Positions 11,921 through 48,235 of a stretch of 64,000 bases of DNA are shown here, one piece after another. The translations under genes were made by a program, and so were the position numbers. Location of the stretch: NCBI GenBank assembly GCA_002840535.1, contig PHBH01000026.1, positions 11,083-75,082 on the forward strand. The letters run 5' to 3'. Every line of letters starts with the position of its first letter. Within the stretch, counting starts at the first letter, position 1. The notes under the pieces were generated by a model, which did not search any database, was not told the origin of the DNA, and saw nothing but the letters and a program-made list of their open reading frames with translations. The DNA is from Deltaproteobacteria bacterium HGW-Deltaproteobacteria-15. GTDB lineage: Bacteria; Desulfobacterota; DSM-4660; Desulfatiglandales; HGW-15.

Positions 11921-11928
11921 ACGGTTAT

Positions 11929-11952
11929 TGGCGGAAGTGCATGGGAATCGAA
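11929..11952. repeat. 24-bp exact copy of the tRNA-Sec 3-prime end (distal att repeat of island A)
   Basis: TGGCGGAAGTGCATGGGAATCGAA is identical to 51669-51692 and 22057-22080. Confidence 0.85.
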
Positions 11953-20320: not shown

Positions 20321-20582
20321 TTAACCAGAATCCTGCCCTTTCCCTCAGAAGGGCAGGAAATACCCAAAATCAAGAGCTACAGGGACTTTCTACAGGAAAC
20401 AGGTATAGGGTGTTAGGGCATTTGGAACTTAATTCAAAACTATAAGAAAGGCAGCGATATGATTATTGATTTTCGACAAAGGACGCGTTGGAATGAAAAC
20501 CTCAAAACGAAACTCATTGACTTCAGGAAAAAAGTATGCTTCGGATTCTCTCAAATCCAGCAAGGATTCGGAGGGATTCTGC

Positions 20583-21710
20583 ATGAAAGGTTCAATCCAG
20601 TTCAGGAAAGATCGGGGATTGTACTATGTTAGCTGGTACGATCAGGCAAGCAAAAGACGATATAAGGTCTACAAATACAAAGGCGAGTTCCTCTATTCGG
20701 AAAAGGTTGCACAAAAGTTGCTTGCCTGTATGCAGAATGATTTCGAAAGAAAGATATTCAGGATTGAAAATTACCTAGATGATAGTGTCTCAGATGTATG
20801 TAAATATCTCGATGAATGGTTGACTACAATAAAGAGTTTTTTGAAACCCGGTACAAGTAAAGACTACGAGAATTCTGTTAGAAATTATCTAAAACCTTTC
20901 TTTGAACAAAAGAAGATAGGTTTAGCAGAAATACAATACGATACTTTGCTTGAACTAATGAATTTCATTGATAGGTCTGGTAAAGGTAGATTGAACGTTA
21001 TGTATTGTTTGCATTCCTGCTTAGACCACGCATGGAGAAGCAGAAGAATACCTAACATACCTCCATTTCCAAGAAAGAAGCAGTACAAAATCGAGAAAAA
21101 GCCGATTGTCTGGTTGCCGGAGGAAAGACAGATTGCTGTTATTAAATCCATTCCTGAAATTCATCAGCCTATTTTTTGGTGGTTGAAGTTTCATTTCAGA
21201 AGGGAAGGGGAAGCCTGTGCTCTCCGAAACGAAGATTTTGACGGAAAGATTTTCTATATTCACAGAACGGAATCAGCTAGGGTTTTCACCGATACCACCA
21301 AAACGGGAGAAATCCACAACATCGCTATGGTAGATTCTTTTAAACCTTTTCTAGAAATGGAAAAGGAGAAACAGAAGAAAATGAGCATAATTTCAAGGTA
21401 TTTTTTTGTAAATCCAGTGGGCAAGGAAGAAGGGAAACCATACCACGTTAAGACCCTAGGAGATATTTGGAACAAAGCATGTTCGGAACTAGGAGAACAT
21501 ATCAGATGCTATGCAGGGACAAAGCACTCTTCTTGCTCTCAGTTTATAAACGAAAAAGGCGGTACAGAATCAGAATTGCAGATGATAACAGATCATGCTC
21601 GATTAGAGTCTGTAAGAAACTATGCCCGAACTGAGGTAGCCAGAAGGAAAGAGCTAATGGAAAGGAAAGTTGTTTCTCTTCAACCTAAGACCATTGGAGG
21701 TAAGGCATGA
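20583..21710 (+). CDS. tyrosine integrase of island A
   Basis: Phage-integrase-type architecture. The N-terminal MKGSIQFRKDRGLYYVSWYD arm-binding-like start was chosen over the upstream TTG at 20466. C-terminal ...GTKHSSCSQF...HARLESVRNYAR. Adjacent to the 67-bp selC repeat. Confidence 0.8.
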   Translation: MKGSIQFRKDRGLYYVSWYDQASKRRYKVYKYKGEFLYSEKVAQKLLACMQNDFERKIFRIENYLDDSVSDVCKYLDEWLTTIKSFLKPGTSKDYENSVRNYLKPFFEQKKIGLAEIQYDTLLELMNFIDRSGKGRLNVMYCLHSCLDHAWRSRRIPNIPPFPRKKQYKIEKKPIVWLPEERQIAVIKSIPEIHQPIFWWLKFHFRREGEACALRNEDFDGKIFYIHRTESARVFTDTTKTGEIHNIAMVDSFKPFLEMEKEKQKKMSIISRYFFVNPVGKEEGKPYHVKTLGDIWNKACSELGEHIRCYAGTKHSSCSQFINEKGGTESELQMITDHARLESVRNYARTEVARRKELMERKVVSLQPKTIGGKA

Positions 21711-22056: not shown

Positions 22057-22123
22057 TGGCGGAAGTGCATGGGAATCGAACCCACCTGCCAGGTTTTAGC
22101 CCGGCACACCGGATTTGAAGTCC
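22057..22123. repeat. 67-bp exact copy of the 3-prime two-thirds of tRNA-Sec (distal att repeat of island B; former selC end next to island A)
   Basis: Identical base for base to 51669-51735 (hand alignment). Includes the UCA anticodon loop region. Confidence 0.9.
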
Positions 22124-23208: not shown

Positions 23209-24924
23209 ATGCACAAGGTCATAGCATCGTACCTTGAAACGTTTTCAGTTCATCATGGCATTGAATCATTGGTCGAATCCGAACGCTTCGAACGCTTCGT
23301 CAACTTCGCTGTCGTCTCCTCTTTCTTTCCAGACCAGTTCGATATCGACGACATCACTACCGGGACCGGGGATGATTCGATAGACGGTGTCGCCGTCATT
23401 ATTGGCGACGAACTTGTCGTTTCGGCGGACGACGCTAGCAGCGTCTTCGCTCGCCTTCGTCCACGGCAGCAGGTCCCAGCCCGCTACATCTTTGTCCAAG
23501 CTAAGCGTTCGGAATCCTTTGATGCGGGTGAAATGCTGAAACTCGGGTCCGGCGTCCAACGTATTTTGACAGACGCGGATGGAGGCCCAAGCGATGATGT
23601 GCTTAAAGACTTTTTGAAAATACACGAAGTCGTAGTCGCGAATCTCGCCAAAGTTGAGAATGGACGATCAGACGCTCTGCTATTTTATGTGACGACCGGA
23701 ACCTGGCATGAGGACAACGGCCTCCGGCCGCAACTCAGATATGTCGAAACTCAGCTAAAATCAACTGGACTACTTCATTCAATCACCTACGAACCGGTGG
23801 ATCGAGAGAAACTCATCCGCTTCTGGCTCATGTCTCAGGCTCCAGTCGAAGCGACATTTCCCGCCAAGAATTACATAGCCTTCCCTGCGATTGAAGGTGT
23901 AACTGAAGCCTATTTAGCCATAGTCCCAGCGCTCGAGTTTGTAAATAGAGTACTAGCAGACGACGAAGGTCGAATCAGAGCCTCAGTCTTTGATCAGAAT
24001 GTACGAGCGTATCTTGGCGATGACAATCGGGTCAACGTGAAGATTCGAGCGTCTCTTCAAGATAAAAGCGCTCACGACAGGTTCGCAGTCCTGAATAATG
24101 GAGTAACCGTAGTCTCTCCCGACGTCAGAGTCCAGTCCGATAGAATCTCTGTAAAAGACTATCAGATAGTCAACGGATGCCAGACCAGTCACGTCCTCTT
24201 TCGCAATCGAGAAGCACTTACCGATAAGGTGTTCGTGCCAGTTCGAGTAGTTGAAGCAGCCGACCCGGGCCTCATCGCCCGTATGGTCGAGGCTACCAAT
24301 AGCCAGAGCAACGTTGAGGAATCTCAGTTCCTGTCAACTCGTCCTTTTGTGCGCCAAGTAGAAGCTTATTTTGATGCTTTCGATAACGAGGAAGACCGCG
24401 ATCGACGATTGTACTTTGAGCGCCGTACTCGCCAGTTCTCAGGGCACAACATCGCCCGTGCAAGACTATTCGATATTCAGCGCCTCGCCAGGTGTTTCGC
24501 TTCGATGTTCTTGGAGGTGCCGCACCTCGCCGCCCGCTATCCAACCCAGACATTCCAAGAAAGAGCGGACCAACTCTTCCAGTCAGACCATCGAGAAGTC
24601 TCGTACTACGCGGCGGCACTCGCTCTCTACCGTCTGGAGTTGTCCCTTGGAAACCAGTATGTTCCGCGAAAATATCAGATATTCAAATGGCATCTCCTTC
24701 TTATCGTTCGGTATCAGTTAGCTGGGCGTGAGCTTCCGGGGCTCAATTCCGGCCGGCTTGAGAAGTACTGTGCCCGTATCATTGATGCCTTTTCGCCAGG
24801 AGGGAAGACCTCAGCCACTCCGTTCCTGGAAGCCACCAAAGTCATAGATGCACTCGGCAATGCAAATCGTGACCGTCTGCGTCAACAAAAGTACACAGAG
24901 GAAGTGAAGAAGGCACTCGCCTAG
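23209..24924 (+). CDS. AIPR-family (abortive-infection phage-resistance) protein
   Basis: N-terminal ERFERFVNF...GDDSIDGV block and central LNNGVTVV...YQIVNGCQTSHVLF motif characteristic of AIPR proteins. Confidence 0.8.
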   Translation: MHKVIASYLETFSVHHGIESLVESERFERFVNFAVVSSFFPDQFDIDDITTGTGDDSIDGVAVIIGDELVVSADDASSVFARLRPRQQVPARYIFVQAKRSESFDAGEMLKLGSGVQRILTDADGGPSDDVLKDFLKIHEVVVANLAKVENGRSDALLFYVTTGTWHEDNGLRPQLRYVETQLKSTGLLHSITYEPVDREKLIRFWLMSQAPVEATFPAKNYIAFPAIEGVTEAYLAIVPALEFVNRVLADDEGRIRASVFDQNVRAYLGDDNRVNVKIRASLQDKSAHDRFAVLNNGVTVVSPDVRVQSDRISVKDYQIVNGCQTSHVLFRNREALTDKVFVPVRVVEAADPGLIARMVEATNSQSNVEESQFLSTRPFVRQVEAYFDAFDNEEDRDRRLYFERRTRQFSGHNIARARLFDIQRLARCFASMFLEVPHLAARYPTQTFQERADQLFQSDHREVSYYAAALALYRLELSLGNQYVPRKYQIFKWHLLLIVRYQLAGRELPGLNSGRLEKYCARIIDAFSPGGKTSATPFLEATKVIDALGNANRDRLRQQKYTEEVKKALA

Positions 24925-25075
24925 ATGCGGCCCACCGGAAGGGCTTCGCTGGTGATGCCGAACAGTCCTGAGAACCGTTACGTAGGCCGGCGGTTTCGCG
25001 AACGCCATGGGCTAGCGCTGGTTAGACACGGAAACGTTGGATTGGACAACCCCTTTGACGGATGTCGATTGACAG

Positions 25076-25828
25076 GTGATGGCAGTGCATCATAAGAAAG
25101 ATGGGTCGTTCGATAAGCTTAGTGGTTTTCTGAGCAGTGTTCGTAAGGCATGCATTAAGAAATCATCCCTTTTGGCTTTTAACGATAAGGATTTCGCCAA
25201 TGGTTACACGATCTGTCTTTACTCAATTGTCATTGAACTGGCGGGCGACTGCTGTCATGCGGTTAAGGCCAGGAAAGAACGTGCATCATACGTACTGACA
25301 AGAGCCTTACTTGAGGCCGTCGTCGATCTATTCAACGTCATCAAGAACCCCAAATATGTTCATACCCGGTTTCAAAGGGCGCTGGTTGAAAGAAAGAAGA
25401 AGCTCACCTACCTCCAAGAAAAGGAACCAGGACTTATCTCGAGAGGCGGACGGGACGTCAACTATGTAGATGCCGCAATCCGTAAAATCGACAATCTTAG
25501 AGATACTCACATCGAGCAGCCAAATATCAGGAACCGGTTTCGTGATGCGGATATGGAAGGCTACTATGATACTGCATATTCTCTATTGTGTGATTTCTGC
25601 CACCTTGATGCCAGCACCTTATTGAGCAGGCCAGTCGGGCTAAAGGTTAGTCCACTTGATGACATAAGCCTCCTAATGTTAAGTGATCTTATTGCTGAAC
25701 TGCTGCTGGATTCAACAATTGCCATTCATGAGATGCTTGGCTCTAAGAAATCGAAAGAGATTGAAGAACTGAAGTCCAGATGGAAAGCTGTGTACAGCCA
25801 ACAAGCGGCTACGATAGGACCTCGCTAA
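25076..25828 (+). CDS. helical hypothetical protein downstream of AIPR
   Basis: 250-aa ORF (GTG, or ATG 3 nt later). Predicted helical. No confident family. Confidence 0.5.
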   Translation: MMAVHHKKDGSFDKLSGFLSSVRKACIKKSSLLAFNDKDFANGYTICLYSIVIELAGDCCHAVKARKERASYVLTRALLEAVVDLFNVIKNPKYVHTRFQRALVERKKKLTYLQEKEPGLISRGGRDVNYVDAAIRKIDNLRDTHIEQPNIRNRFRDADMEGYYDTAYSLLCDFCHLDASTLLSRPVGLKVSPLDDISLLMLSDLIAELLLDSTIAIHEMLGSKKSKEIEELKSRWKAVYSQQAATIGPR

Positions 25829-26254
25829 TGCTCGGCTGCTGAACCGTGGTATGCAATTAGCCCGATATCCCCTCCATGTCTGCATTCGTCCCTGTTTTTG
25901 GATTTCTGCTCTTCCCGGGTTAAACCCCACTTGCAATGGGGATACCCACTTGGTATTACAGGTTTTGTGGTGATCCGAAACCTGGTTTCGTGGCAAGCTG
26001 TCTCAGATTTTAAAGGAGCTTGATTCTTTGTCATATCAATTTTCCATCTCAGGTCCGGAAGGATTGTGATCAGTGAGTCGTGCCGAACACTCTGGTGCCA
26101 GAAGTCGTGACATATAAGTGTGCTATCAATGCAGAAACACCGTCTTCCTGATTTCATTGGTAAAACGGTCTCTTGTATTCTCACTTCTTTTTTGATAGGG
26201 TTCCTTTCCCATAGAACAGCACTCGGTTTTCGGCTTTCAAAATGCTTGGGAAGT

Positions 26255-26434
26255 AAGACATGTCGGGTGCATACCTTCCGCCACTCCTTTGCCACTCACC
26301 TGCTCACAGGCGGGTATGACATATGGATGATCCAGGAACTCCTGGGGCACAAAGACGTCAGCACCACGATGATCTACACCCATATTCTGAGCAAGCGAGG
26401 CCATGGAGCACGAAGCCTGGTCGATGAGTCTTGA
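26255..26434 (+). pseudogene. C-terminal remnant of a tyrosine recombinase (integron-integrase/XerD-like)
   Basis: Only [40 protein letters not shown]...GARSLVD is recognisable. The upstream part of ORF 26120-26434 has no recombinase features, and the N-terminal domains are absent. Confidence 0.7.
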
Positions 26435-26621
26435 TTCAGTTTATACGGTCTGTATATCCCGGAAGCCCTAAGATGAGTGATCCTTACAACCGTGCGAAAT
26501 AGGAGACGTTTCTGGATCCCAGGCGAGGTGCCGTGCCGTCTTATACAGAAAGGGATAGCGGCGCCCGCCGTCTTATACGGAATGTATATTTTTAGTTATA
26601 CCAAGGACCAGAAGGAAAGAG

Positions 26622-27221
26622 ATGTCGATCATGTGTGATCGGTTGGAATGTAGTTCAAGCAGAAGGCATGCCGCAATCGTGGCGTTAGCATTGCTCTGCT
26701 ACGTGGTCAATGCCCATTGTGCAATGGCGGCCGAGAGAAATTTTGATGCTCTGTCCTTTTTCGAATGGAACACGACCTTTTTCCAAGAGTTTAGCTCGTT
26801 TAGGAAGCAGTGGTTCAGTGTCGAAGATCGCATCTCGAGTATCAAAGGCGAATATGAACCATTCGACTGGAAGGCGGTCCGAAATAGCGCCAAGGACGTA
26901 GTTGCAAGGCATGAGCACTTAATGGTGAAGTTTGCTCGAGATTGTAGGGCAGCCAAAGCTAAGCTGTCCCCAGCTGAGAGCGGGCCGGCAGAACGCGCAA
27001 TCCAACTTATGCTCGAATACCTCGATAGCGTAGGTCTCGTGGTGCTAAAACTTTACGAGATTACCGAGAAACTCCATGGAAAAACTTTGGATCCCTATTC
27101 CTACACGATGGAGAACTACAACGCCGACTTCCGGGAGTTCAAAGATCTAAACGCTCGATTTGAAAGTAAGGGAAAGGATGTCAACCTGCTGCTATACGGC
27201 AAGGCATCACCGGGAAAGTAG
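26622..27221 (+). CDS. hypothetical protein with hydrophobic N-terminus
   Basis: 199-aa ORF after GGAAAGAG. AIVALALLCYVVNAHCAMA leader-like segment. Confidence 0.5.
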   Translation: MSIMCDRLECSSSRRHAAIVALALLCYVVNAHCAMAAERNFDALSFFEWNTTFFQEFSSFRKQWFSVEDRISSIKGEYEPFDWKAVRNSAKDVVARHEHLMVKFARDCRAAKAKLSPAESGPAERAIQLMLEYLDSVGLVVLKLYEITEKLHGKTLDPYSYTMENYNADFREFKDLNARFESKGKDVNLLLYGKASPGK

Positions 27222-27312
27222 GTAACCGAAAAAGGCATAACGAACGGCTGCACAAGGACCGCTCGTTATACTCGCGGCCTGTGAGCCGTGGTGTGGGCCA
27301 TAAGGAGATAAG

Positions 27313-28089
27313 ATGAAATTCAGCTATTACGATTTAGGAAATCGTTCGGGTGGCGAAATCGTCGAGGTGACTTTATCTGGCAATGCTGCGAACGTTTTCC
27401 TTGTTGATAGTTCGAATTTCAGTTCCTACAAGTCTGGACGTCGCTACACGTATTATGGCGGCAATGCAAGGCGCTCACCCGTGCGGCTCCCAATCCCTCG
27501 ATCCGGGCATTGGTATCTCGTGATCGATCTCGGAGGGTATTCCGGATCTGTTAGGCATTCAATGCGAATATTGCCTGGGCCTCTGCAACCGTTGCGGGAT
27601 ATACCTCTTTCCTCTGTTCCTTCACTGGTGCAACCCAGCCGCGACGATATGTCAGCACCTGGCCAAGATGACCGGGAGTTTGACGTTTTCATTTCGCATG
27701 CATCTGAAGACAAAGACGCTGTTGCAAGACCTCTGGCGGCGGCGCTTCAAGGCGGTGGCCTTCGAGTCTGGTATGACGAGTTTGAGTTAAGAATCGGCGA
27801 TAGTCTTCGTCGTAAGATAGACAAGGGCTTAGCCAGCAGCCGCTTTGGGGTAGTCATACTATCGAAATCCTTTTTTGATAAAGGTTGGCCGAACTATGAA
27901 CTGGACGGTCTGGTGACACGTGCAGTTGGTGGCGAACAGGTGATTCTGCCGATCTGGCATGACATTACAAAGCAAGAACTCATCAATTACAGTCCGTCAC
28001 TTGCTGACAAGGTAGCTCGCAGTACGGCGACGCATACAATAGAAGAGATAGCTGCAGAGATTATCGAGGTGATTAAAAATGTAGGATAG
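27313..28089 (+). CDS. DUF1883-like N-terminal domain fused to a TIR domain
   Basis: AAGGAG before the ATG. N-terminus FSYYDLGNRSGGEIVEVTLSGNAANVFLVDSSNF...YYGG...GHWYLVIDLGG. C-terminus FDVFISHASEDKD...RVWYDEFELRIGDSL...VVILSKSFFDKGWPNYELDGL, with the conserved TIR Glu present. Confidence 0.85.
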   Translation: MKFSYYDLGNRSGGEIVEVTLSGNAANVFLVDSSNFSSYKSGRRYTYYGGNARRSPVRLPIPRSGHWYLVIDLGGYSGSVRHSMRILPGPLQPLRDIPLSSVPSLVQPSRDDMSAPGQDDREFDVFISHASEDKDAVARPLAAALQGGGLRVWYDEFELRIGDSLRRKIDKGLASSRFGVVILSKSFFDKGWPNYELDGLVTRAVGGEQVILPIWHDITKQELINYSPSLADKVARSTATHTIEEIAAEIIEVIKNVG

Positions 28090-28111
28090 GCCCGACCTGA
28101 CGTTTCACCGG

Positions 28112-28798
28112 ATGGCTTCGCTACCGGTGAGCTTGGCGGTTATGCTTATGAATGAAAATCGCTTGCGCAGATACATAAGCTTACCGGTTCTCTTCGATAT
28201 GCTCGTCAACAAGAGGATCACTCTTCTGGATCCTGCATCATGGGAGGATCGTAATGATTCATTCTACGTGGAAAAATATCGTGAGATAAAGCAACTCCGA
28301 ACCCTACTGGCGCTGTGTTTCACTACGAAGCCTGAAACTTTTCATCACTGGAAAGTTTTTGCTGGGAACTCGGGTGGTGTGTGCGTTCGTTTCAACGCAG
28401 AGAACCTACTCTCATCGTTCAGCAATACACGGGGAATAAAGACTGGCACTGTAATTTATCGGCGCATGCGGGATCTCAAGAAAAATCCTCCTGCAGTGGA
28501 CGAGCTTCCGTTTCTTAAACGCAAGCAATATGAAGATGAAGCCGAATTCAGGATAATTTACGAGGACAAAGGAAAGACGTACCATGTGAGAAGCTTTGAA
28601 ATCGATCTTCGGTGCGTTGAGAAAATAACATTGAGCCCCTGGCTCCCTTCCTCAGTATCCAAAACGACCAAAGAAATCATTCAAAGGATTCCAGGTTGCG
28701 GATCAATAGCACTCATAAGAACTGGGGTGGTTGAAAGTTCGGAGTGGCAGAACATCATAAATAACTTGCAAAAAAGGCGCTTAAAAGGGACGCAGTAA
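28112..28798 (+). CDS. DUF2971-like protein
   Basis: N-terminal RRYISLPVLFDMLVNKRITLLDPASWEDRNDSF resembles the DUF2971 signature. Starts 22 nt after the TIR gene. The true start may be an internal Met. Confidence 0.6.
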   Translation: MASLPVSLAVMLMNENRLRRYISLPVLFDMLVNKRITLLDPASWEDRNDSFYVEKYREIKQLRTLLALCFTTKPETFHHWKVFAGNSGGVCVRFNAENLLSSFSNTRGIKTGTVIYRRMRDLKKNPPAVDELPFLKRKQYEDEAEFRIIYEDKGKTYHVRSFEIDLRCVEKITLSPWLPSSVSKTTKEIIQRIPGCGSIALIRTGVVESSEWQNIINNLQKRRLKGTQ

Positions 28799-28858
28799 AA
28801 AACCGCCGGCCGCGCCCCCTTTACTTTTTGTTGGGCTCCGCTAAGAAAGTAATGGTGT

Positions 28859-29851
28859 ATGAAGGCACAAGATTCGTTAGAGGAAATATTTGATCTAGAA
28901 GCAGCCGTCAAGGCATTGTGTGGAATTTTCCAAGAGGTTGACCGCGTATACATTTTTGGGTCAAGGCGCTTTGACACAAAGAGCTCCCGCTCCGACATAG
29001 ATATTTTGCTTGAGTGCAATAGCCGCATAAAGAAATCAAAGCTTCGTGACTTCATCATTAAGCATCGAGCAGCATTAGATCTTTTCGTCCTCGAAGAAGG
29101 TCGTGCCGAGAGTGTCGCAAACGAGAGTTTTATCACCGCCGCGAGTAATCATGATCTCATTGCTCAACTTAGTGCCGTCGAGCTTTATTCAAGAAGATCA
29201 GGCTCTAGTGAGTTCTTGCGCCAAAACAAACACCTCTCCATAGATCGACGAGTTGACTTTAAGATCACAGTTCTCCCTGGTAAGTCTTCTGAGTATTACG
29301 AAATAGCTGCTCTAAGAAAATTCTTCCATACTGCTCAAGAGCATGGGCTCCCTGCTCGCCCCTATATTGGCATATCCTCAGTTGAGGCAGGTGAGTTCAT
29401 AATTTCTATAATTCGTGCAATTCCATCAGCAAACAGGATGGTTACCAATTATGGTTTAGCCAAGTCAGGCTGGACTGTAAAGATTGCCAGCGAGTACGAC
29501 TTTCAGAATCTATTCTGGATCACGATCAAGCCGTGGCTTCCAGGCCTTTCGCGAGAAGAGGTCACGATCACCTATGATGGGAAAGAAAAGAGAGCGGACT
29601 TCAACCTCTTCGGAAATCAATTAATCATTGAATTGAAGCATATTAAGGACGATGGTGATGTACGGGAGACTGTAAAGACTTTGGCTGGCTTATCAGAGTT
29701 CTACTCGCGTCACCCGAATGTGCGATTTCTGATTTTTGCCCTCTTAGTTGATGCGCAAGTTCAACTGGACGATCGAAAATGGGAGCAAGACTACTCTTAC
29801 AGCGCACACCTACCAATCGTCCAAACTGTTATCGTGAGGAACAACGCCTGA
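28859..29851 (+). CDS. minimal nucleotidyltransferase fused to a PD-(D/E)xK-like nuclease domain
   Basis: N-terminal Pol-beta-type NTase motif IFGSRRF...SRSDIDILL. C-terminal EYDFQ...RADFNLFGNQLIIELKH fits a D...ExK nuclease core. Confidence 0.65.
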   Translation: MKAQDSLEEIFDLEAAVKALCGIFQEVDRVYIFGSRRFDTKSSRSDIDILLECNSRIKKSKLRDFIIKHRAALDLFVLEEGRAESVANESFITAASNHDLIAQLSAVELYSRRSGSSEFLRQNKHLSIDRRVDFKITVLPGKSSEYYEIAALRKFFHTAQEHGLPARPYIGISSVEAGEFIISIIRAIPSANRMVTNYGLAKSGWTVKIASEYDFQNLFWITIKPWLPGLSREEVTITYDGKEKRADFNLFGNQLIIELKHIKDDGDVRETVKTLAGLSEFYSRHPNVRFLIFALLVDAQVQLDDRKWEQDYSYSAHLPIVQTVIVRNNA

Positions 29852-30120
29852 ATTAATGGGCCAACAAGGGCATGCGCGAGGACACGAAACCACGCAGTGC
29901 ATATTGGTTGGCATTTCTTCAGCCTTTTTGGCCGCGTGGTTCTGTGTCTCTTTACACTTTTACCTCGTTGTGGCTTGTTCTGCCACACAAAGGTCTCGGA
30001 GACATGACAACCAATTCCTTTCGATGACCTCTTATAATTCCTCGGGCTAGGCGGACCAGCCGAAGAGAGGTGACCCTGCCACTGGAAGGCACCTCTCAGG
30101 GACCGCTGAGGGAGTGGATT

Positions 30121-31620
30121 ATGAAAGAGCAGAACCACCCGAATAAATCGATTTGCATTCCCAGACCAGGAGACACCATTACCGGGAGAAGGGCGCATGA
30201 AGATTACGACGTGAGCTACCCGCAGATACGGGAGGCTATACGTGACGGTAAATTGCACGCCACTAAGAATGGAATGGAGGTCATCGATATACTTGGGAAC
30301 CCTTCAACTCCGGAAGAGCGGCTTGAAGCCGAAAGAAAACACGCAATTTACCAGATTGCGAAAGCGCGCGGTCAAAGCGGGGACCCGAGAGTGCCTCATG
30401 GTAAGTATGGAATCAACCTGAGTACCCCCGTTGCTGAGCTTCTGCCGGATGAATGGAACGAAATTGAGAAGGAGATTGCCAGCGTTGATCTCTCAATGGA
30501 AGAAGTGAGAAAGTGGGTTGCGAGAGATCGGCCGATTTCGAAATCTACAGGAGCTTCCAACTTGGGGTGGGGTTCGGGACCAGAGACGTCTTACCCGAGT
30601 TTCGAAGAAAGGCTAGAGAAGGCCTTTCACTGGTATGAAGGGGAACTAAACGCACAGCCCGACCAAGAGGAAGAGAGAAAGCTGCGGTACGAGAACAGCA
30701 ATCGAGTCAGGTTGGCACTCAAAAACGAATACCTCTCCCTGGGGGACCTCGCGTACATACTCGCCGAGGAAATATCCGAAGAACTTCTCAGTCGGCGGTG
30801 GAAAGAAATCCGTTTTCTCGGTGGGGACCTGTTTGCCAAACTCCCTCTCCCGTTAGGCATTGCCCACAACAGGTTCCTCATATGGGGCTGCATCCTAGAA
30901 AAGGCGTGCCAAGGAATTGTTCAGGATGGCAGCCGCTTACCTTTGTACAAGAAGGCCAATGGCTCTGATGAGCTCGTGAAATGCGTGTATGAGGAAATGC
31001 GAGATACATCTCTTGTCAAACTGGCCGACGTCGAGGAGTACTTCACTTCCCATAACCTGCCTCGGCCGGAAAGCTTGTTCCCGGACGAAAATCGGAAAGA
31101 ACTGGAGGAGACCAGGAAACACCATCCGTCTGCGTTGCCTGCCGGCGAGATTCCGAAAAAAGAGATCCTCGCTTGTGCCGCTGGAACACTCTGGAGTAGC
31201 GTCAAGATCACGGCCACGAGTAATGGGGCGGTGAAGATAGAGACTTTAAAGGGAAGGGCGCGGTTCACGTATGGTGAATTAGGATTTGCAGACGGAAAGA
31301 ATCCGGACAAGCCTACAAGGCCGTGGTTCGTTCTCTTGGATTTCTGCAGGAACGGCGGGACTGTCACTCTCAAGGGAAAGGACGGTGCTTATTACAAACA
31401 GGTAAGCGACCTAAACAAAAAACTTCAGAGCCTATTTGGCCTCAACTCATCTTTCCTCAAGGGCGGGAAATACAAGAGCCGCAAGGGATATATATCGGAG
31501 ATCCTCTTCTCAGACCTGAGGGACTCAGACGCATTAAAGAGATCGGCTACGCCAGATGATGACCTCATTGAGTACATGGTCGATGAAATGAGCAGGGGGG
31601 AACGCAAAGGCCCCTGCTGA
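30121..31620 (+). CDS. large hypothetical protein
   Basis: 500 aa from the ATG after GGGAG (the ORF track starts at GTG 30070). No motif recognised. Confidence 0.55.
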   Translation: MKEQNHPNKSICIPRPGDTITGRRAHEDYDVSYPQIREAIRDGKLHATKNGMEVIDILGNPSTPEERLEAERKHAIYQIAKARGQSGDPRVPHGKYGINLSTPVAELLPDEWNEIEKEIASVDLSMEEVRKWVARDRPISKSTGASNLGWGSGPETSYPSFEERLEKAFHWYEGELNAQPDQEEERKLRYENSNRVRLALKNEYLSLGDLAYILAEEISEELLSRRWKEIRFLGGDLFAKLPLPLGIAHNRFLIWGCILEKACQGIVQDGSRLPLYKKANGSDELVKCVYEEMRDTSLVKLADVEEYFTSHNLPRPESLFPDENRKELEETRKHHPSALPAGEIPKKEILACAAGTLWSSVKITATSNGAVKIETLKGRARFTYGELGFADGKNPDKPTRPWFVLLDFCRNGGTVTLKGKDGAYYKQVSDLNKKLQSLFGLNSSFLKGGKYKSRKGYISEILFSDLRDSDALKRSATPDDDLIEYMVDEMSRGERKGPC

Positions 31621-32491: not shown

Positions 32492-33261
32492 ATCGCGGGT
32501 ACATCCGGCTTTGGCGAAAGACCCTGGACAGCGGATTATTGCAGCAGCATAAAGTTTGGGTTCTCTTCTGTTACTGCCTTCTGAAAGCCACATACAAAAG
32601 CCGGAAGGTGATCCACGGGGGCCGGGAGATCCTTCTGGAGCCCGGGCAATTCATCTTTGGAAGGCGCATAGCTTCTGAAGAAACGGGGCTTACAGAGCGC
32701 GAGATCCGCACTGCTCTTGCTTCTCTGATAAAGCTCGGAATTCTGACCAACAAATCGACCAACAAATTTTCGATAATTACCATTGTAAATTGGAGCATTT
32801 ACCAAGCACCGGAAGACGACAACGACCAGCAAATCGACCAGCAAGCGACCAGCAAGCGACCACAGACAAGAAGTAAAGAAGGTAAGAATAAAGGAACCCC
32901 CGAAGAATTTTCGGGACTCTTTGCTTCTCTTCTCTCCCGATTTTCTGATCAGGAAATCATTCAACAAGCCTTTGAATCCATAGCATCGACCAGAAAGGGA
33001 AACCGAATCGCCGACACCGTAAAGCTATCAATCCTTCAGGCATGGGAACGATACACGGTTGAACAGGTACAGGGCGGGATCCGCGTTTACCTGGACAAGG
33101 GGTATGCAGAGCAGGGGAAAGCTGAAAAGTACCTCTTGGGAATCATCCGAAATCAGAACGGCCAGGAACCGAAGGGCCTGGGGGAAGGATTCAAGTCAAC
33201 AGGAAGTGCCCTTCTGGACGACGCCATGAGAAACCCGGAGAAATACAGGCCAGAAATATGA
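32488..33261 (+). CDS. replisome-organizer / replication-initiator-like winged-helix protein
   Basis: N-terminal GYIRLWRKTLDS...LLEPGQFIFGRRIASEETGLTEREIRTALASLIKLGIL is typical of phage/plasmid replication wHTH proteins. Translationally coupled to the primase-helicase. Confidence 0.55.
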   Translation: MNRGYIRLWRKTLDSGLLQQHKVWVLFCYCLLKATYKSRKVIHGGREILLEPGQFIFGRRIASEETGLTEREIRTALASLIKLGILTNKSTNKFSIITIVNWSIYQAPEDDNDQQIDQQATSKRPQTRSKEGKNKGTPEEFSGLFASLLSRFSDQEIIQQAFESIASTRKGNRIADTVKLSILQAWERYTVEQVQGGIRVYLDKGYAEQGKAEKYLLGIIRNQNGQEPKGLGEGFKSTGSALLDDAMRNPEKYRPEI

Positions 33262-35015
33262 TGAGCGCAGCGGAATACATCCGAGACACAGGCTTTGAGC
33301 ACAAGGAACAAGGCGGCCAAATTGTCTTAAAGACCTGTCCATATTGCGGGGACCAGAAATCACATTTTTACATGGACCCCGAGGAAGGGGCTTTCTTCTG
33401 CCACAAGTGCAACGAGAGGGGAAACCTGATCACCCTTAAGAAGCACCTCGGGGACTTCGAATATTCCAGGCCAGAGAGCAGGACACGGAAGCCGGCAGGA
33501 AAACTCCAAGGACAGGTTTCAGCGGCATTTCCGGAGAACGAGAAGGCTTTCACCCTGCCCGATGAGAAAAAGGCCCTGCAGGCCCATGAGCGGCTGCTCA
33601 AGGACCCTGAAGCGCTGTCCTACGTGACAGAGGCGCGGGCGATCACTAGGGAAACCGCGATTCAATTCAAGCTGGGGCTCCAAGTCGACGGCACCGGCAG
33701 CCGATGGTTGACCATTCCCCATTATGAGAAGGGCAATCTGATAAACATCAAGAGCCGGTCCCTGCCACCCGCGGAGAAGGCCTTCAGGCGTGTAACCGGA
33801 GCCCGGTCCATTCTGTTCAATTCGGACTGCCTGCAGGAGAACACGGAAGAGGTATATATCGCCGAGGGCGAGCTTGACGCGATCACCCTCCATGATCGGG
33901 GAATCACGAACGTGGTTTCGGGAACGACAGGGGCCGGGGCTTTTGATCCTGCCTGGATCGATCAGCTTGCCAAGCTCAAGAGAATCATTCTCTGCTATGA
34001 CCCGGATGAGGCCGGCCAGAAGGGAGCACGCGAACTTGCAAGGCGTATCGGCTATGACCGATGCGTGAATGTGGTCCTTTCGGACAGCCAGGATGTGAAT
34101 GACTTCTTTGCATCGGGAAAGGATATTTTCGATTTTCAGGTAGTGGTGAACGAGGGGAAGAAGTTTGACGTTGCCGGAATCGTCTCGTTCAAGGAGGCCC
34201 TTCTGAATTACTGCAAGGAACTGGAGAGGGCCTACGAAGCAGAGGCAGGCATAAGAACCGGCTGGCCGTCCATTGACCGGATCATTAAGACTGGCTTCAT
34301 GCCGGGGGAATTGGTTGTCCTGTCCGCTCCTCCCAAGATCGGTAAGTCAACTTTTGCCCTTCAGGTGATCACGCATAATGCCCTTCAAGGTCTCCCTTCC
34401 CTGTTCTTCTGTCTCGAAATGAGGCCGCGGAAGGTTACGGAGAAAATCATTCAGTGTCAGACCCGAAAGCCGGGGGCCGGTGAAGAGATTGACAGAGCCT
34501 GGGAGATCCTGAAGGGAATGCCCCTGTACCTCGGGTTCTCTTTCCAGAAGCCCACCCTCGAGGGAATTATGGAGACACTGAAAGCGGCCGTGAGGAGGTA
34601 TGGGCTGAAACTGGTGTGCTTCGATCACCTTCATTTCCTCTGCCGATCGATCAACAACCAGGTTCAGGAAGTGGGGCTTGCGGTCCAAAGTTTCAAGTTT
34701 TTGGCGGAGGAGATGGAAGTCCCGATCATCCTGATTGCCCAACCTCGAAAGATTCAAGCCAATGAGATCATGACGGCGATGGACTTGAAGGATTCCTCTT
34801 CCATTTTCAGCGACTGTGATCATCTGATCATTCTCCATCGACAGAGGAAGGCCAGCAGGAGCCATGAAGTTGCAGGAGGCGCGCCTTTGCAGGACCAGGC
34901 GTTTGAACCTCAGACACTCGTGAGGGTCGAGGCCAGCAGGTACAATCCCGGGGGAGAAGCTCTGTTGTACTTCCATGGAGAGTACTCGAGGTTTGATGAG
35001 ATAGCGCGGAATTGA
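33258..35015 (+). CDS. bifunctional primase-helicase (T7 gp4/Twinkle-like)
   Basis: Zinc finger CPYCGD...FFCHKCNERGN. TOPRIM AEGELDAITL and CYDPDEAGQKGA. DnaB/RecA-type Walker A SAPPKIGKST and Walker B LVCFDHLH. Confidence 0.85.
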   Translation: MMSAAEYIRDTGFEHKEQGGQIVLKTCPYCGDQKSHFYMDPEEGAFFCHKCNERGNLITLKKHLGDFEYSRPESRTRKPAGKLQGQVSAAFPENEKAFTLPDEKKALQAHERLLKDPEALSYVTEARAITRETAIQFKLGLQVDGTGSRWLTIPHYEKGNLINIKSRSLPPAEKAFRRVTGARSILFNSDCLQENTEEVYIAEGELDAITLHDRGITNVVSGTTGAGAFDPAWIDQLAKLKRIILCYDPDEAGQKGARELARRIGYDRCVNVVLSDSQDVNDFFASGKDIFDFQVVVNEGKKFDVAGIVSFKEALLNYCKELERAYEAEAGIRTGWPSIDRIIKTGFMPGELVVLSAPPKIGKSTFALQVITHNALQGLPSLFFCLEMRPRKVTEKIIQCQTRKPGAGEEIDRAWEILKGMPLYLGFSFQKPTLEGIMETLKAAVRRYGLKLVCFDHLHFLCRSINNQVQEVGLAVQSFKFLAEEMEVPIILIAQPRKIQANEIMTAMDLKDSSSIFSDCDHLIILHRQRKASRSHEVAGGAPLQDQAFEPQTLVRVEASRYNPGGEALLYFHGEYSRFDEIARN

Positions 35016-36720: not shown

Positions 36721-36763
36721 GGATGGGGCCAAACGCGACCTCTCAGAGGTTCGCGAAAAAATA

Positions 36764-36835
36764 GTCCGCAGTGAAGTCCGCACCCCCAACGCGAGCGAAG
36801 TACGCAGTGAAGTACGCACCTCCAACGCGAGGCCA
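36764..36835. repeat. two tandem 36-bp iteron-like units
   Basis: GTCCGCAGTGAAGTCCGCACCCCCAACGCGAGCGAA followed by GTACGCAGTGAAGTACGCACCTCCAACGCGAGGCCA. Confidence 0.8.
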
Positions 36836-36915
36836 GGGTCGGGATGGCCGGGGGTATGCGTGAAAAGTCGAATCCTGGGCCGGTGCGAAAGTCCCTTCGG
36901 CATCGGCGGCCCGGG

Positions 36916-37167: not shown

Positions 37168-37447
37168 GGTGAAAAACCGCCCAAGAGAAGGGGTTCTTAT
37201 ATCCGATTTCTTGCGATCTCATGCAAACGCATACCGGACTATGGACCTTGCAAAAAACTCTCTTCTACGTCCCTGTTTTTGCGTTCTGCCACTTTTGATG
37301 ATGGACAATGCGATCGGCAAGGCACAGCCAATAGGGGAAAAGTGATCAAGGTGACTGATGAAGCATTTCCCCTGCTCGATGACGAGAGAGCTTTACATGC
37401 TGATCATCGCAGCCAAGGAGCAGGCTCAAAAGAGTGTGCTAAAAGAT

Positions 37448-37483
37448 AGTGCGCAGTGAGGTGCGCACCCCCAACGCGAGCGA
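37448..37483. repeat. third copy of the 36-bp iteron-like unit
   Basis: GTGCGCAGTGAGGTGCGCACCCCCAACGCGAGCGAA. Same AAAA(A/G)ATA left flank as unit 1. Confidence 0.8.
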
Positions 37484-37784
37484 AGAAGCTCTTTGACAAC
37501 TGAATCCGCGGTGAGCTAACGGCCGACCCGAACAGGCCGTAAGTATGGGCAGGCGGCATCATGAGGCGCCGAGACATCCCTGGGAGAACCAGGTAGGGAG
37601 CCCGTCCGGAAGTGGAGCAAATGGGCTTTAGCGTTCGGCAAGATTTTCCTAATTGGATGGTGTGTTGGGGGCATCTATCAGAAGTTTAGGGCTATTTCTT
37701 TCATAAGAAAACGGCATCGTTTTTGCTAATGGATTACTTCAAAAAGGTCGATTACAAATCAGACGCATATCTCAGGAGTGACAA

Positions 37785-38889: not shown

Positions 38890-39129
38890 TACTTCTTCAC
38901 TCCCTCGGACTCACATACCTGCTTCCCACTTTTCCCCCGTTTTGATTGCCTCCTCCGGGCTCTTGAATTTGACCAGGTTGTCCGGGTTGATTTCCTGAGC
39001 CCATCTGCAGGAAGGGGGTATGAAACTTATCCGACTTCTTGGAAGCCCAGAATTCAGCACTCAGGGCAAAGGCTGTGAAGAGAGAAGGATGGTCAAGGCG
39101 GACACGAGTATCTGAAAGCGTCTTTTCAT
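38890..39129 (-). pseudogene. frameshifted small secreted protein gene ending in a thermonuclease-tail-like segment
   Basis: GGAGG plus ATG at 39129 opens MKRRFQILVSALTILL... but stops after 22 codons. Other frames continue with SKKSDKFHTPSCRWAQEINPDNLVKFKSPEEAIKTG and GSRYVSPRE. At least one frameshift relative to the start. Confidence 0.35.
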
Positions 39130-41413: not shown

Positions 41414-41515
41414 TAATCGTCTTCTGTTCATAGTCCAATTATTCCAGTTGTTCTTATAGTGTTCGTCAATATGACATCTAAAGGAATTTCCATTTCAGTC
41501 GTTCAATTCTTCCTC

Positions 41516-41574
41516 CACTCCCTCGGACTCTCATACTTACTTCCTTGGTTCCACATCCCCCGCCTTGCCTGCCG
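41516..41574 (-). repeat. remnant of a thermonuclease gene 3-prime end
   Basis: 49 of 59 positions identical to 46949-47007 (hand alignment). The minus strand reads RQARRGMWNQGSKYESPREW versus RQAKRGMWVQGSRYVSPREW in the intact gene. Confidence 0.75.
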
Positions 41575-42085: not shown

Positions 42086-44629
42086 TCAGTTCGGCTGTGC
42101 CTTCTCGGTCTTGGCCGTGCTGACGTTCTCAAACACCTTCAGCGCATCCTTCCGGGTAATCACTGTGTCGTAAAGGCCGATGTCCTCGCCTTCGTGCTTG
42201 TTGATTCCGGTATAGCTCAGGCTGCAATCTTCATAGCGCTTGAACTTGTACACAGCATCGTTCATAAGGGCGCTGTTGAAGACTCCCATGCTGACCAGCA
42301 ACTCAAAATCCTTCACTATCAGGCCCGTAACCTTCTTGAACAGCCCTGGTTCAAGTTGGGTAATCACATCCTTCAGGGTCCGCTCGCGGTAGTCGGTCAG
42401 GTACATGAAGATCGGGATCCGCGTGGCGAATTTGATGAGTTTCTCCTGGATCTTCTTTCGCAGGCTCGTGTATTCCTTTTCCTCCTTGGAAAGCTCCTTC
42501 TTCTCCTTTGCGGACAGTTCCTTGTCGTTGGCCTCCTTGCGGGCCTTCTTCACGGCTTCCGACTTGTTGATGATCGTCTCGATGTCCTGATTAAGATTGC
42601 GGAAACCTTCGATGCTCATGAGGGCTTCCATCGCCTTTTTGTTGTTCATCAGGCGACGCAAGGTGTCGGTGTCCACATTCACCAGCAAGGCGCTTTCCCA
42701 GCGCCTTGCGAGTAGGGTTGCCGTCGTGCCGCTCATCGCTATGTCGAGGATCCCGGCGGCATCAATCTGCTTCATGGAACTGCCGTCGTAAGCCAAAACC
42801 GGCAGGAAGCTGATGAACTCCTCCACCTTCTTTTCCGCATTCGCCTCGTTTGTGTTCAACCGGCAACTGTAGTCGACAATCTGCCGCAAGGCTCGGTCCG
42901 GGGCGAAGTCGAACACGTAGCACTCCTCTTTGATAATCTGCTCGTAGTTCGGAGACGCGCCGTCCGGGTTGCGAACCGTCCAGGGCGATTGAACTCGGAA
43001 AGCCGCCTGAAAGTACGTTTCGGGGCTGGACGAGTTGCGCAACATGAGAATCCCCGTCCACGGCTTCACCGTCACGCCAGTAGTTAGCTTCCCACAAGAG
43101 AGAGTGATGGTCTTTGATGTGAGGGGATCGTCCATCGCCTCCTGCACCGGCGTCAAAGCCGCTACACCAATTCCGGCGGCGCTCCCAGCCGCCACGATGA
43201 TTTTGTAATCGTGGTAGAACCGGTTCTGCTTCTTCGACAGTAGATTGCGCATGGCGTGACAGGCCGCCACGCTCGGCAGGAACCAGAAGGAATGCGAAAG
43301 CACGCCTAGGAGCCGCGCATCCGAGAAAGGCATCGGCGGCTTCTTCGCCCCGAGTTTCAGGTTGTCAACGCTGGTCGGCATGAACGCGCCCCGAATCAGG
43401 TCCAGCCACTTCTGGACTTCTTCCTCGTACTTGAACTTTGCCTGCTTGCCGAGTCCTTCGGCGGAAAAGAAAACATTCAAGTCGAACTCGTTGAACTCGC
43501 CCTGCATGGCAATTTCCCGGATTGCATCCGGCAGTTGGTACGTCAGGAGCACCATCCGGGGCAAAGCGGCATAGGGGTTGTTTGTGCCTTTCCAATTCCT
43601 TTTTGCCCGCTGTTCGTCTGAATAGGTCCAGTTGTAGATTTGTTCCTCGATGAACTCGCCGGAAGCGATAGCTCGAAACGGTGTGCCGGACAGGTAAAGA
43701 TAACCTTCCGTAGTGATCGGCATGATGTCTTCGTCAAAATCCTCAATGCCTTCGCCCTCAGCGAACTCGCGCTCCTTCTTGTCTTCCGACTCAAAAAGTT
43801 CCTTCGCATTCTCCCGCCATGCGCCATAGTGGTACTCATCCAGTATGACGCAATCCCAATGCGTCGAGTGGACCCATTCGTTTTTCGTCTTGATGCCGCC
43901 CGTGCTGAGGTTCCGGCCCAGATAGTCCTGAAACGATCCGAAACAGACGAACGGCCGTTTTCTGTCCGCCTGTTCGTAAGTCAGTCCGCCGGGTTTTATG
44001 AATTGCCAACCCTTGAAATCAACGTGACACTTCAAGTCCTCTTCCCAGGCGCTTTGCACCGCCGGTTTGAAGGTCAAGACCAGCACCTTCCGCCAGCCCA
44101 TCATCTTCGCCAACTGATAGACAGCAAATGTCTTCCCAAAACGCATCTTGGCGTTCCAAAGGAAATGCGGCGGCTTGTTCCTGTTGTTCTTGTCCCTGCG
44201 CCAATTGACGAAGTAGGCCGACGTCCTCTCGACCGCCGCTTGCTGCTCGGGGCGCATCTTGAAATCTAACGACCGGTTCTCTTCGTTAAGTTGGCCGGTC
44301 CGAACGGCGATGATCGCCCCCTTGGCTTGGGCAACCGTGCAACGGAACCACTCGCCTTCCGGGTTCTTGACGCCGTTGAGCCGCAGCATCCGATGTACAT
44401 CGTGATCGGTAAATACAGTTCCGTCTCTGCGCATGGCTGATTCTTCCAGAACGATCCGGTACGGCGGTTTGCCGGGTCTCTTTGTGGGATACTGCTGGGC
44501 GACGCGGCTCTGTGCATCCACCGTTGTATAGCCAACCTTGAGAAGGCCTGCATATTGCAGGTTCGTATCCTCGTAAGCGTAGATCGTAGGCCGCGATGCC
44601 GGGCGAGGCGGAAAGAGATCGTTATTCAT
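42086..44629 (-). CDS. restriction-type SF2 helicase with N-terminal GIY-YIG-like (T5orf172) domain
   Basis: N-terminus LLKVGYTT...DVHRML...GEWFRC (T5orf172/GIY-YIG-like). Helicase motif I FGKTF and motif II ILDEYH. Start trimmed to MNNDLF, overlapping the methylase stop. Confidence 0.8.
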
Positions 44630-46175: not shown

Positions 46176-46860
46176 GGGCGATCTCCATAAAGTGAACCGC
46201 GGGATATTCCTTCTTCGGCCTCGGGATGAATACCTTTTCACCAAGATCGGAGAAGAGGGGGAGTCGTCCGGCTCTTTCCTTTTCCAAATCAGGGAAGAGA
46301 AAGGTTTGTCTTGTTTCCTTATGCCGTAGCAATTCGCTAAAAGTGAAGTCCCTCCGCTTGAGCATGCTCCCGTTAACCGGCGACCACTCGGAAAAGACGA
46401 TGTAGTCGGGGGGGTCGCAAACCATTTTAAGTGTGAGTGCGTCGCCCCAGATAATGTTTCGGTCGAGAATGAACCGGACCGTTTCGCGGCATTTGTTCTT
46501 GGCGCGGTTCTTGAACAGCCGGGAATAAAAATCGCAGTCGAAGAGGCCGTAAAGCCGATGACGACATTGCCGGACGTTGTCCTCTAGGATGTCAATGCCA
46601 TAGATCGAAGTGATGGCCAGAATGGAGTAGCGCTCAAAGTCCAGTTGCGACTTACCGTAGCGCTTTTCCACAACCGCCAACTTCCGTTCCAGAATTACAG
46701 ATAGGAAGTTGCCGTTGCCGCAAGCAGGCTCTAGGAAACGGGAGTCGATCCGCAGTGTCTCCTGCTTCACCAGATCGAGCATGGCGTTGACCTCGTGTTT
46801 CCCGGTCAACACCTCGCCATGATCAGCGACTCGCTTTTTCGATATGATTTGCGATTTCAT
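46162..46860 (-). CDS. short methyltransferase-like protein with apparently degenerate catalytic motifs
   Basis: Motif [13 protein letters not shown] is present. GEVLTG replaces the usual GEVFTP, and no canonical (D/N)PP(Y/F) is seen (only CDPPDY). Confidence 0.6.
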
Positions 46861-47433: not shown

Positions 47434-47687
47434 GATCTCCCTAGGAAAACCAGCTTGATTATCTACATCAGCACGATTGCCGACATGATGAGCATCCAGA
47501 TCCACTTTTGCTTCTTTGAATCCTTGTCGTTGCCCATGTTTTAAGGCCACACAGAGAGGCTTGCCCTCATTAGACGGCTGCAATTACCATCAGTCCACAA
47601 ACCACCATGCAACCTAGCAGGACCAATGCTCTTTTCCTTCCAAGTCTGTTAAGATCCTCGACCATCATATCAATCATGACAAGCACC

Positions 47688-48233: not shown

Positions 48234-48235
48234 CG

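Follow-up and report, generated by a model that had tools for sequence, protein, structure and literature searches.

AbTIR, a TIR-domain enzyme, forms 2'-cyclic ADP-ribose (2'cADPR), a reaction that requires W204 and E208 of its WxxxE motif, and its E208A variant is catalytically inactive (PMC10641520). DUF1883-TIR is listed among the predominant bacterial TIR architectures (PMC9153377); no functional studies of this architecture were found in the literature. DUF2971 proteins have been classed as DarT/AbiGi-like ADP-ribosyltransferases (ART; PMC12522546), and Aristaios, a DUF2971 protein, is a validated single-gene abortive-infection antiphage system (PMC11381338). The restriction-endonuclease-like (REase) family PF18742 is listed as an effector variant of Detocs, beside its usual PNP effector (10.1101/2023.01.24.525353), while FhepTA, a fused toxin-antitoxin of a minimal nucleotidyltransferase (MNT) and a HEPN domain, is kept silent through self-oligoAMPylation and a block on dimerization (PMC13000451). 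Domains of these kinds are encoded side by side in a row of three genes (positions 27313-29851) in the 64,000-nucleotide stretch of DNA analyzed here (the window), which covers positions 11,083 to 75,082 of contig PHBH01000026.1 from Deltaproteobacteria bacterium HGW-Deltaproteobacteria-15 (assembly GCA_002840535.1). A first-pass annotation had presented this row as a candidate undescribed three-gene defense system. The results described below indicate that the row very probably consists of three independently acquired and independently acting single-gene modules in the cargo of a tRNA-SeC island.

As annotated, the row contained three intact, co-directional open reading frames (ORFs) on the plus strand (27313-28089, 28112-28798, and 28859-29851). 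These encode a DUF1883-TIR protein of 258 aa (gene 1), a DUF2971 protein (gene 2), and a 330-aa fusion of a nucleotidyltransferase (NTase) and a REase (gene 3). For gene 2, the ATG at position 28148, which was picked by one gene caller and is located near the starts of most aligned homologs, is probably the true start and yields a gene at 28148-28798 encoding 216 aa; the alternative upstream ATG at 28112 would yield 228 aa. With the start at 28148, the gap between genes 1 and 2 becomes 58 nt instead of the 22 nt initially given, while the reported gap of 60 nt between genes 2 and 3 was found again. All three are real genes rather than chance ORFs, since each has a conserved homolog family (at least 8000, more than 620, and approximately 116 clusters at 90% identity for the TIR, DUF2971, and NTase-REase proteins, respectively). 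A weak terminator-like hairpin with a T-run was found by a consensus scan at 29906-29924 on the plus strand, 55 nt past the stop codon of gene 3. Because the numbers of promoter and terminator sites in the region were at or below shuffled expectation, this hairpin is at most suggestive of a common transcript end.

Co-occurrence of the three families was investigated in 144 independent loci, of which 37 held an NTase-REase(-like) gene, 20 a DUF1883-TIR gene, and 87 a DUF2971 gene. Searches were performed with tblastn and with profile hidden Markov models (HMMs), built from the three family alignments and run against six-frame ORFs of all 150 loci. By either method, two of the three families were found together in none of the 144 loci, apart from one apparent case (L084), and the profile HMMs accordingly returned 37, 20, and 86 single-family loci plus this exception. 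The apparent pair of DUF2971 and NTase-REase in L084 was rejected: its upstream protein is a Zn-ribbon-REase that has the REase domain alone in common with gene 3 and lacks an NTase. The full trio recurred solely in six contigs that were 99.2-100% identical to the window and are copies of the same island. Absence of co-localization in other genomes was the observation that the first-pass annotation had itself named as speaking against a three-gene system, and the claim of such a system is therefore not upheld. Its fallback, three independent single-gene systems, was instead backed by the lack of both co-occurrence and conserved partners, and the absence of co-occurrence indicates that the three genes are independent cassettes assembled in one island.

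Gene neighborhoods of the individual families were also variable, and rich in defense and mobile-element genes. For the NTase-REase family, 33 loci were obtained from one-genome-per-species contigs, 17 of them with a full-length homolog and up to 10 kb of sequence per side. TIR or DUF2971 relatives occurred near none of the recovered NTase-REase loci, and an all-against-all BLAST of neighbors revealed no neighbor family common to them. The genes directly upstream were unrelated (DUF6602, DUF1905, DUF5131, IstB, SLFN-AlbA_2, an Ig-like protein, and others), and the commonest Pfam or PADLOC family among the 109 neighbor proteins of the 17 genome loci occurred three times. These neighbors were a mixture of defense genes (type I methyltransferase, Mads, PD-T4-6, MkoA), mobile-element genes, and housekeeping genes. 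A homolog from Pseudomonas fragi, in the 68-69% identity range, was flanked by YobI-ATPase and AAA_15/21 genes, and a 69%-identical homolog on a metagenome contig (L137, 1-10993) was part of a long series of unrelated small genes on one strand. Genes of 228-242 aa upstream of four homologs (L002, L003, L009, and L011) were considered as hidden DUF2971 genes and discarded: none matched Pfam DUF2971, they were mutually unrelated, and one encoded a DUF5131 protein.

The DUF2971 gene likewise showed a stand-alone distribution. Among 80 metagenome loci, with at least 1 kb of upstream sequence in 47/80 and at least 1.2 kb of downstream sequence in 38/80, no conserved neighbor was detected: TIR relatives were found in 0/80 and the biggest common neighbor family was present in 4/80. 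In 11 distinct contexts of DUF1883-TIR genes, subunits of type I restriction-modification (R-M) systems were the sole recurrent neighbors. TIR homologs at 85-88% identity had entirely different neighbors: AbiEii, FRG, GmrSD, and type I R-M genes in one context, BREX genes in a second, and type I R-M genes with Dev_Cell_Death in a third. A homolog with 71% identity was located between HsdR and HsdS (L048). Among viral contigs (IMG/VR), no member of the NTase-REase family was detected and few members of the TIR and DUF2971 families, so that these contigs gave no further information on linkage.

These distributions bear directly on the possibility of one integrated system, in which a cADPR-type signal from the TIR protein would activate the DUF2971 and/or NTase-REase proteins as effectors, according to a Thoeris-like logic. 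Such a system would fit the tight spacing of the genes on one strand, with a terminator-like site solely after gene 3, as well as the match of gene 1 to the PADLOC model for ThsB (4.7e-42) and the formation of 2'cADPR by its closest characterized relative. However, neither BLAST nor HMM searches revealed co-occurrence in the independent loci, and close homologs of gene 1 (85-88%) and gene 3 (68-69%) have unrelated neighbors. Moreover, no recognizable ligand-sensing domain (SLOG, Macro, or SAVED) was detected with Pfam and PADLOC models in either downstream protein, and gene 2 is frameshifted in one variant of the island while its neighbors are intact. We therefore regard an integrated system as extremely improbable, and the row as a set of independent modules.

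Domain analysis of gene 1 confirmed the DUF1883-like N-domain and the TIR domain that had been recognized in its product. The DUF1883 domain (aa 1-88; nt 27313-27576) matched Pfam DUF1883 (1.1e-30) and the structure of Atu1913 (2b1y; 2.4e-15). The TIR domain (approximately aa 118-256; nt 27664-28080) matched Pfam TIR_2 (1.1e-19) and the structure of AbTIR (8g83; 4.3e-51), with 58% identity over 140 ungapped residues, as well as structures of TcpB, PdTIR, and BtTIR-type proteins. The predicted catalytic-Glu motif GWPNYELDG was present at aa 191-199 (nt 27883-27909); it includes a WxxxE motif (W192 to E196; nt 27886-27900) that was invariant in 15 homologs. The best PADLOC match was PDC-S66 (4.7e-70), ahead of ThsB. 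Based on sequence similarity, gene 1 is predicted to encode an AbTIR-type NAD+ glycohydrolase/cyclase that forms 2'cADPR.

Gene 1 thus resembles AbTIR, TcpB (BtpA), PdTIR, and PDC-S66 in its homologous TIR domain, in W192 and E196 of the WxxxE motif, and in being a stand-alone gene. It differs from PDC-S66 in its N-domain, which is an Atu1913-like DUF1883 domain: the match was limited to the TIR half (profile positions 140-281), leaving positions 1-139 unmatched. With Thoeris it shares a TIR domain with a catalytic glutamate (E196), the ThsB match, and a related enzyme that makes a cADPR isomer; in contrast to Thoeris, no ThsA, SIR2, SLOG, or Macro model matched the flanking proteins or proteins in the 10 other DUF1883-TIR contexts. 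SpbK, a single-protein abortive-infection system, is likewise a stand-alone TIR NADase on an integrative element (ICEBs1) and supplies a working model in which the N-terminal part controls activation of the TIR domain (PMC12847820). By analogy, the DUF1883 domain of gene 1 would keep the protein inactive, or would detect a phage signal, up to the point of TIR self-association. Once triggered, the TIR domain would consume NAD+, with 2'cADPR or ADP-ribose as products, and infection would be aborted in the manner of SpbK and other TIR systems made of a single protein.

DUF1883-TIR proteins with 70-89% identity were found across Chloroflexi, Acidobacteriota, Binatia, Dehalococcoidia, and Lysobacter, and their genes occurred repeatedly inside or beside type I R-M operons (L048, L131, L134, and L140). 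This pattern points to horizontal transfer, both frequent and very recent, of a protein under strong constraint. Two candidate partners of gene 1 within the window were considered. The 199-aa ORF upstream was rejected, as it is unrelated to the unannotated 201-aa gene upstream of the Lysobacter TIR homolog and occurs in island copies only. A cpYpsA-SLOG protein (48236-49036), a conceivable remote sensor of the TIR product, is encoded 20 kb away on the other strand. No SLOG proteins were found near other DUF1883-TIR genes.

The assignment of gene 2 as DUF2971-like was borne out by matches to Pfam DUF2971 (PF11185; 5.9e-5, 24.8 bits at a cut-off of 22) and, over residues 15-193, to PADLOC PDC-S31 (2.6e-15). 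Its ExE motif (E131 and E133 in the 216-aa numbering) lies within DEAEFR (nt 28535-28552), and both glutamates as well as R135 were invariant in 20 homologs. In a Foldseek search of the PDB with an AF2 model of the protein (pLDDT 90, pTM 0.82), the top six matches were all DarT (E 1e-5 to 5e-4, probability 1.00, TM 0.44-0.49). On the basis of this model, gene 2 is predicted to adopt a DarT-like ADP-ribosyltransferase fold. It shares with Aristaios/PDC-S31 the PF11185 and PDC-S31 matches, a predicted ART fold, an invariant ExE motif, and a stand-alone gene, and differs in length (216 aa, compared with 316 aa for Aristaios). DarT is its best structural match; in contrast to DarTG, no DarG macrodomain antitoxin is found among the neighbors, as no model for a macrodomain antitoxin in Pfam or PADLOC matched any neighboring protein. 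Gene 2 may ADP-ribosylate DNA, or possibly protein, whereupon replication would stop, as proposed for Aristaios.

In an island variant (L037), an indel of 17 nt shifts the reading frame of the DUF2971 gene (L037 1748-2417), while the TIR and NTase-REase genes were intact. The same variant showed a 243-nt deletion in a 516-aa ORF downstream of the row (L037 3679; window 30068-30310) and 11 substitutions. These differences could represent strain variation or an assembly artefact.

Gene 3 indeed encodes a fusion of an NTase to a PD-(D/E)xK nuclease, as previously proposed, with matches to NTP_transf_2 (9.4e-5), Polbeta, and REase_DpnII-MboI (PF18742; 4e-26). The MNT-like NTase module (approximately aa 1-140) contains G34 and S35, D46xD48 (nt 28994-29002), and D74, and the two motifs that had been pointed out in it, GSRRF and SDIDILL, correspond to aa 34-38 and 45-51. 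The REase core (aa 202-326; nt 29462-29836) contains E212, D247, and E258-x-K260 (nt 29630-29638), the latter being the ELK motif (aa 258-260) that had also been noted. G34, S35, D46, D48, D74, E212, Y213, D214, D247, E258, and K260 were invariant in 20 homologs, down to 33% identity. Structure prediction of the fusion, which the first-pass annotation had recommended, gave an AF2 model with a pLDDT of 80 in which the two domains match MNT and nuclease structures, respectively. The N-domain matched the MNT structures 2rff and 8xeh in Foldseek (TMt 0.58-0.61), and the C-domain matched BbvCI, OkrAI, McrC, and Bax1-type nucleases. Sequence matches in the PDB were to MNT/MntA (5e-7 to 1e-5) and EcbAgaN.

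An exhaustive profile search with the NTase-REase family yielded 120 clusters at 50% identity with E values of 1e-30 or better. Among the proteins listed, at least 22 matched the N-module only (approximately 140 residues) and carried at least eight different C-terminal types. These included a PNP_UDP_1 nucleosidase (P0502), a Sel1-repeat region (P0424), a TIR domain that matched PDC-S35 and CBASS TIR effector models (P0475), and at least four unassigned types. Such an N-module with swappable C-terminal domains, taken together with the listing of both PNP and the PF18742 REase as Detocs effectors, argues for an effector role of the C-terminal domain and for a common regulatory role of the NTase module.

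Gene 3 shares with HepT/MntA and FhepTA an N-terminal minimal NTase with a GS...DxD...D signature, and with FhepTA the fusion, in one chain, to a toxin-type domain that cleaves nucleic acids. It differs in its effector, which is a DNase-type PD-(D/E)xK domain of PF18742 without a HEPN match, and in a longer NTase module (approximately 140 aa, with extra strands). The nuclease family PF18742 is shared with Detocs and short-Argonaute (Aga) systems (PADLOC Aga_Helical-REase 6.1e-12; PDB EcbAgaN). Unlike in those systems, the nuclease of gene 3 forms part of an NTase fusion and occurs on its own, without Detocs kinase or phosphotransfer genes or an Argonaute gene nearby. Type II R-M systems of the DpnII/MboI-like kind differ as well, since no methyltransferase gene flanks gene 3 (Pfam, PADLOC), and N6_Mtase was found in 2/109 neighbor proteins at the 17 genome loci. 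In contrast to CBASS and Pycsar, the NTase of gene 3 matched MNT/PDC-S09-type models only, with no match to a CD-NTase or Pyc cyclase in PADLOC. The row is thus not Thoeris, DarTG, a type VII toxin-antitoxin, R-M, or CBASS. Genes 1 and 2 each match a single-gene kind that is already named, validated, or a listed candidate: AbTIR-type TIR and PDC-S66 for gene 1, and PDC-S31 as well as the Pfam family of Aristaios for gene 2. The sole uncharacterized member of the row is gene 3, which stands apart from the other two members of the trio and is not covered as such by PADLOC 2.0, in which its N-module weakly matched the candidate PDC-S09.

FhepTA is the closest mechanistic precedent for gene 3. In a corresponding mechanism, the C-terminal PD-(D/E)xK nuclease would act as a toxic effector, and the MNT-like N-module would silence it, for example by ATP-dependent self-nucleotidylylation or by blocked oligomerization, by analogy with MntA/HepT and FhepTA. 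The invariant Y213 of the EYD motif is, by the same analogy, a candidate nucleotidylylation site. It is possible, although we consider it rather doubtful, that gene 3 represents an undescribed modular family in which an MNT-like N-module is combined with interchangeable effectors and the NTase, through self-nucleotidylylation, exerts control over the effector in cis.

The resemblance of this MNT-nuclease architecture to fused toxin-antitoxins raises the alternative that the three genes do not act against phages, but are addiction or toxin-type modules that stabilize the island or, in the case of the TIR and ART proteins, host-directed virulence-type effectors. AbTIR, TcpB, and other TIR proteins related to them were initially reported to modulate eukaryotic immunity (PMC10641520), and secretion as effectors is predicted for approximately 18% of DUF2971 proteins (PMC12522546). 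In addition, PDC-S09 gave no protection against T4, T5, and T7 in one test. However, homologs are present in environmental bacteria with a free-living lifestyle, among them Chloroflexi, Acidobacteriota, Binatia, and Lysobacter; R-M or other defense genes surrounded the TIR gene in most of the 11 contexts; and no secretion system or signal peptide was evident for the three proteins. Antiphage activity has, moreover, been demonstrated for a DUF2971 protein (PMC11381338). A role other than phage defense is therefore considered unlikely.

Several observations weigh against the interpretation of the row as three independently acting modules. The sample of TIR contexts was small (11) and many DUF2971 metagenome loci were short. 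The PF11185 match of gene 2 was barely above threshold, its link to Aristaios is one of Pfam family membership rather than direct comparison, and the inter-domain geometry of the NTase and REase in gene 3 was uncertain (pTM 0.51). Activities, triggers, and phage phenotypes of all three proteins are features that we infer. Furthermore, the co-directional arrangement, gaps of 58 and 60 nt, and a possible common terminator mean that the genes may be co-transcribed, and there may be local functional interplay within the island, for instance between two predicted NAD+ consumers that are encoded side by side.

Such interplay could take the form of local synergy or interference between genes of independent origin, with the TIR NADase and the ART competing for NAD+ or jointly draining it and co-transcription producing an island-specific phenotype. 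Both enzymes are predicted NAD+ users, and the small gaps would fit a single transcript. Defense genes in islands often protect additively or synergistically, which would also fit such an effect. However, nothing in the sequence requires it, the gene combination is not evolutionarily conserved, and the scans for promoters and terminators were uninformative, as neither count exceeded shuffled expectation. The chance that local synergy or interference shapes the function of the row is therefore judged to be slight, and independent action of the three modules remains the preferred interpretation.

The location of the row in a selC island, as had been claimed, was corroborated by an intact tRNA-SeC at 51669-51765 on the minus strand (ARAGORN; Rfam RF01852, 73.6 bits), which forms the integration site, and by two repeats of its 3' end. 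A distal attachment-site copy at 22057-22123, which bounds the island that carries the row, is a direct repeat of 51669-51735 (67 nt, 100%), and a third copy is a 25-nt direct repeat at 11928-11952. The presence of this 3' end in three copies indicates two tandem integrated elements. Island B (approximately 11.95-22.06 kb) is approximately 10 kb long, has a low GC content (36-44%), and contains an integrase gene at 20466-21710. Island A (22.12-51.67 kb; 29.6 kb) carries the row, and its integrase gene (50519-51649, plus strand; Pfam PF00589, 1.5e-26) adjoins tRNA-SeC. It also contains a primase-helicase gene (33258-35015) as well as HTH_17, SNase, cpYpsA-SLOG, and trypsin-like genes. The GC content of the three genes of the row was 44.5-49.7%, compared with approximately 54% for the replication genes of the island.

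Cargo at the distal end of island A is arranged in the order AbiU/AIPR, DUF5677, IntI-like remnant, 199-aa ORF, trio, and 516-aa ORF. The AbiU/AIPR gene (23209-24924, plus strand; PADLOC AbiU 3.4e-104, Pfam AIPR 1.1e-40) is a separate single-gene defense module in this cargo stretch, outside the row. Its reported adjacency to the row was loose: both are located in the same cargo stretch, but AbiU/AIPR lies 2.4 kb upstream, with the DUF5677 gene, a tyrosine-recombinase remnant, and the 199-aa ORF in between. The AbiU/AIPR and DUF5677 genes together span 23209-25828 on the plus strand. The recombinase remnant, a C-terminal fragment of approximately 58 aa (26252-26434, in the plus-strand ORF 26120-26434), is situated between the DUF5677 gene and the 199-aa ORF, a sign of a mosaic cargo region. 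Its best match was the integron integrase TIGR02249 (4.3e-23; model positions 256-313 of 315).

The L137 row that contains an NTase-REase homolog, composed of acetyltransferase, methyltransferase, and DUF genes, looks like an integron cassette array. This appearance, together with the IntI-like remnant, had raised an integron-cassette origin of the trio, which found no support: a simple pattern scan for attC-like sites (RYYYAAC...GTTRRRY, with pairing of the flanks) detected none in L137 or in window positions 26400-30100, and the orientation of the remnant was also unfitting. The 199-aa ORF (26622-27221, plus strand; hydrophobic N-terminus) and the 516-aa ORF (30070-31620, plus strand), which flank the row, matched no Pfam, NCBIfam, or PADLOC family. 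They had no tblastn relatives in the 144 other loci and recurred only in copies of the island.

Further along island A, a split type IIG-like R-M pair (42086-46244, minus strand) consists of an 868-aa protein with an N-terminal T5orf172/MUG113 (GIY-YIG-like) domain and a ResIII helicase, followed by a 540-aa Eco57I-type methyltransferase. The stretch at 46903-49036 (minus strand) encodes a 226-aa SNase-domain protein that matches the PADLOC 'SNc+LTD' model, next to an HTH control-protein-like gene and a 266-aa cpYpsA-SLOG/DUF6794 protein. SLOG domains in other defense systems bind nucleotide-derived ligands, and this SNase/cpYpsA-SLOG stretch could be another defense module. Two types of repeats were also observed. 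A 48-nt repeat, each copy with a short palindrome-like core (GCGCAGTGAAGTCCGCAC), occurs three times (36753-36836 and 37438-37485) on the downstream side of the genes for the primase-helicase and an SU10-adaptor-like protein; these copies could represent iterons or an origin of the element. A sequence of 30-60 nt is found three times (83-97% identity; 38898-38927, 41515-41574, and 46948-47007) at gene boundaries in the second half of the island and may be a common regulatory or recombination site.

Overall, the row represents ordinary defense-island cargo, stacked on an integrative element. A three-gene system, if true, would have represented a novel pathway of the Thoeris-like kind; the data speak against it and thereby spare a wet-lab chase of a false operon. 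What the row offers instead lies in its separate genes. DUF1883-TIR neatly exemplifies a very widespread, unstudied architecture; its predicted and almost certain 2'cADPR-forming NADase domain and its repeated occurrence inside type I R-M operons make it a good candidate for establishing which native role, other than virulence, the AbTIR/Tcp family has. The product of gene 2, with 216 aa, is a short relative of the Aristaios family that resembles DarT and lacks an antitoxin. The NTase-effector family of gene 3 is a modest lead. If its modular organization is real, it would provide DNase, NADase, or ATP-nucleosidase counterparts of the fused MNT-HEPN toxin-antitoxin, and, if the NTase module is self-regulating, it would extend the MNT principle of "antitoxin by nucleotidylylation" beyond HEPN RNases.

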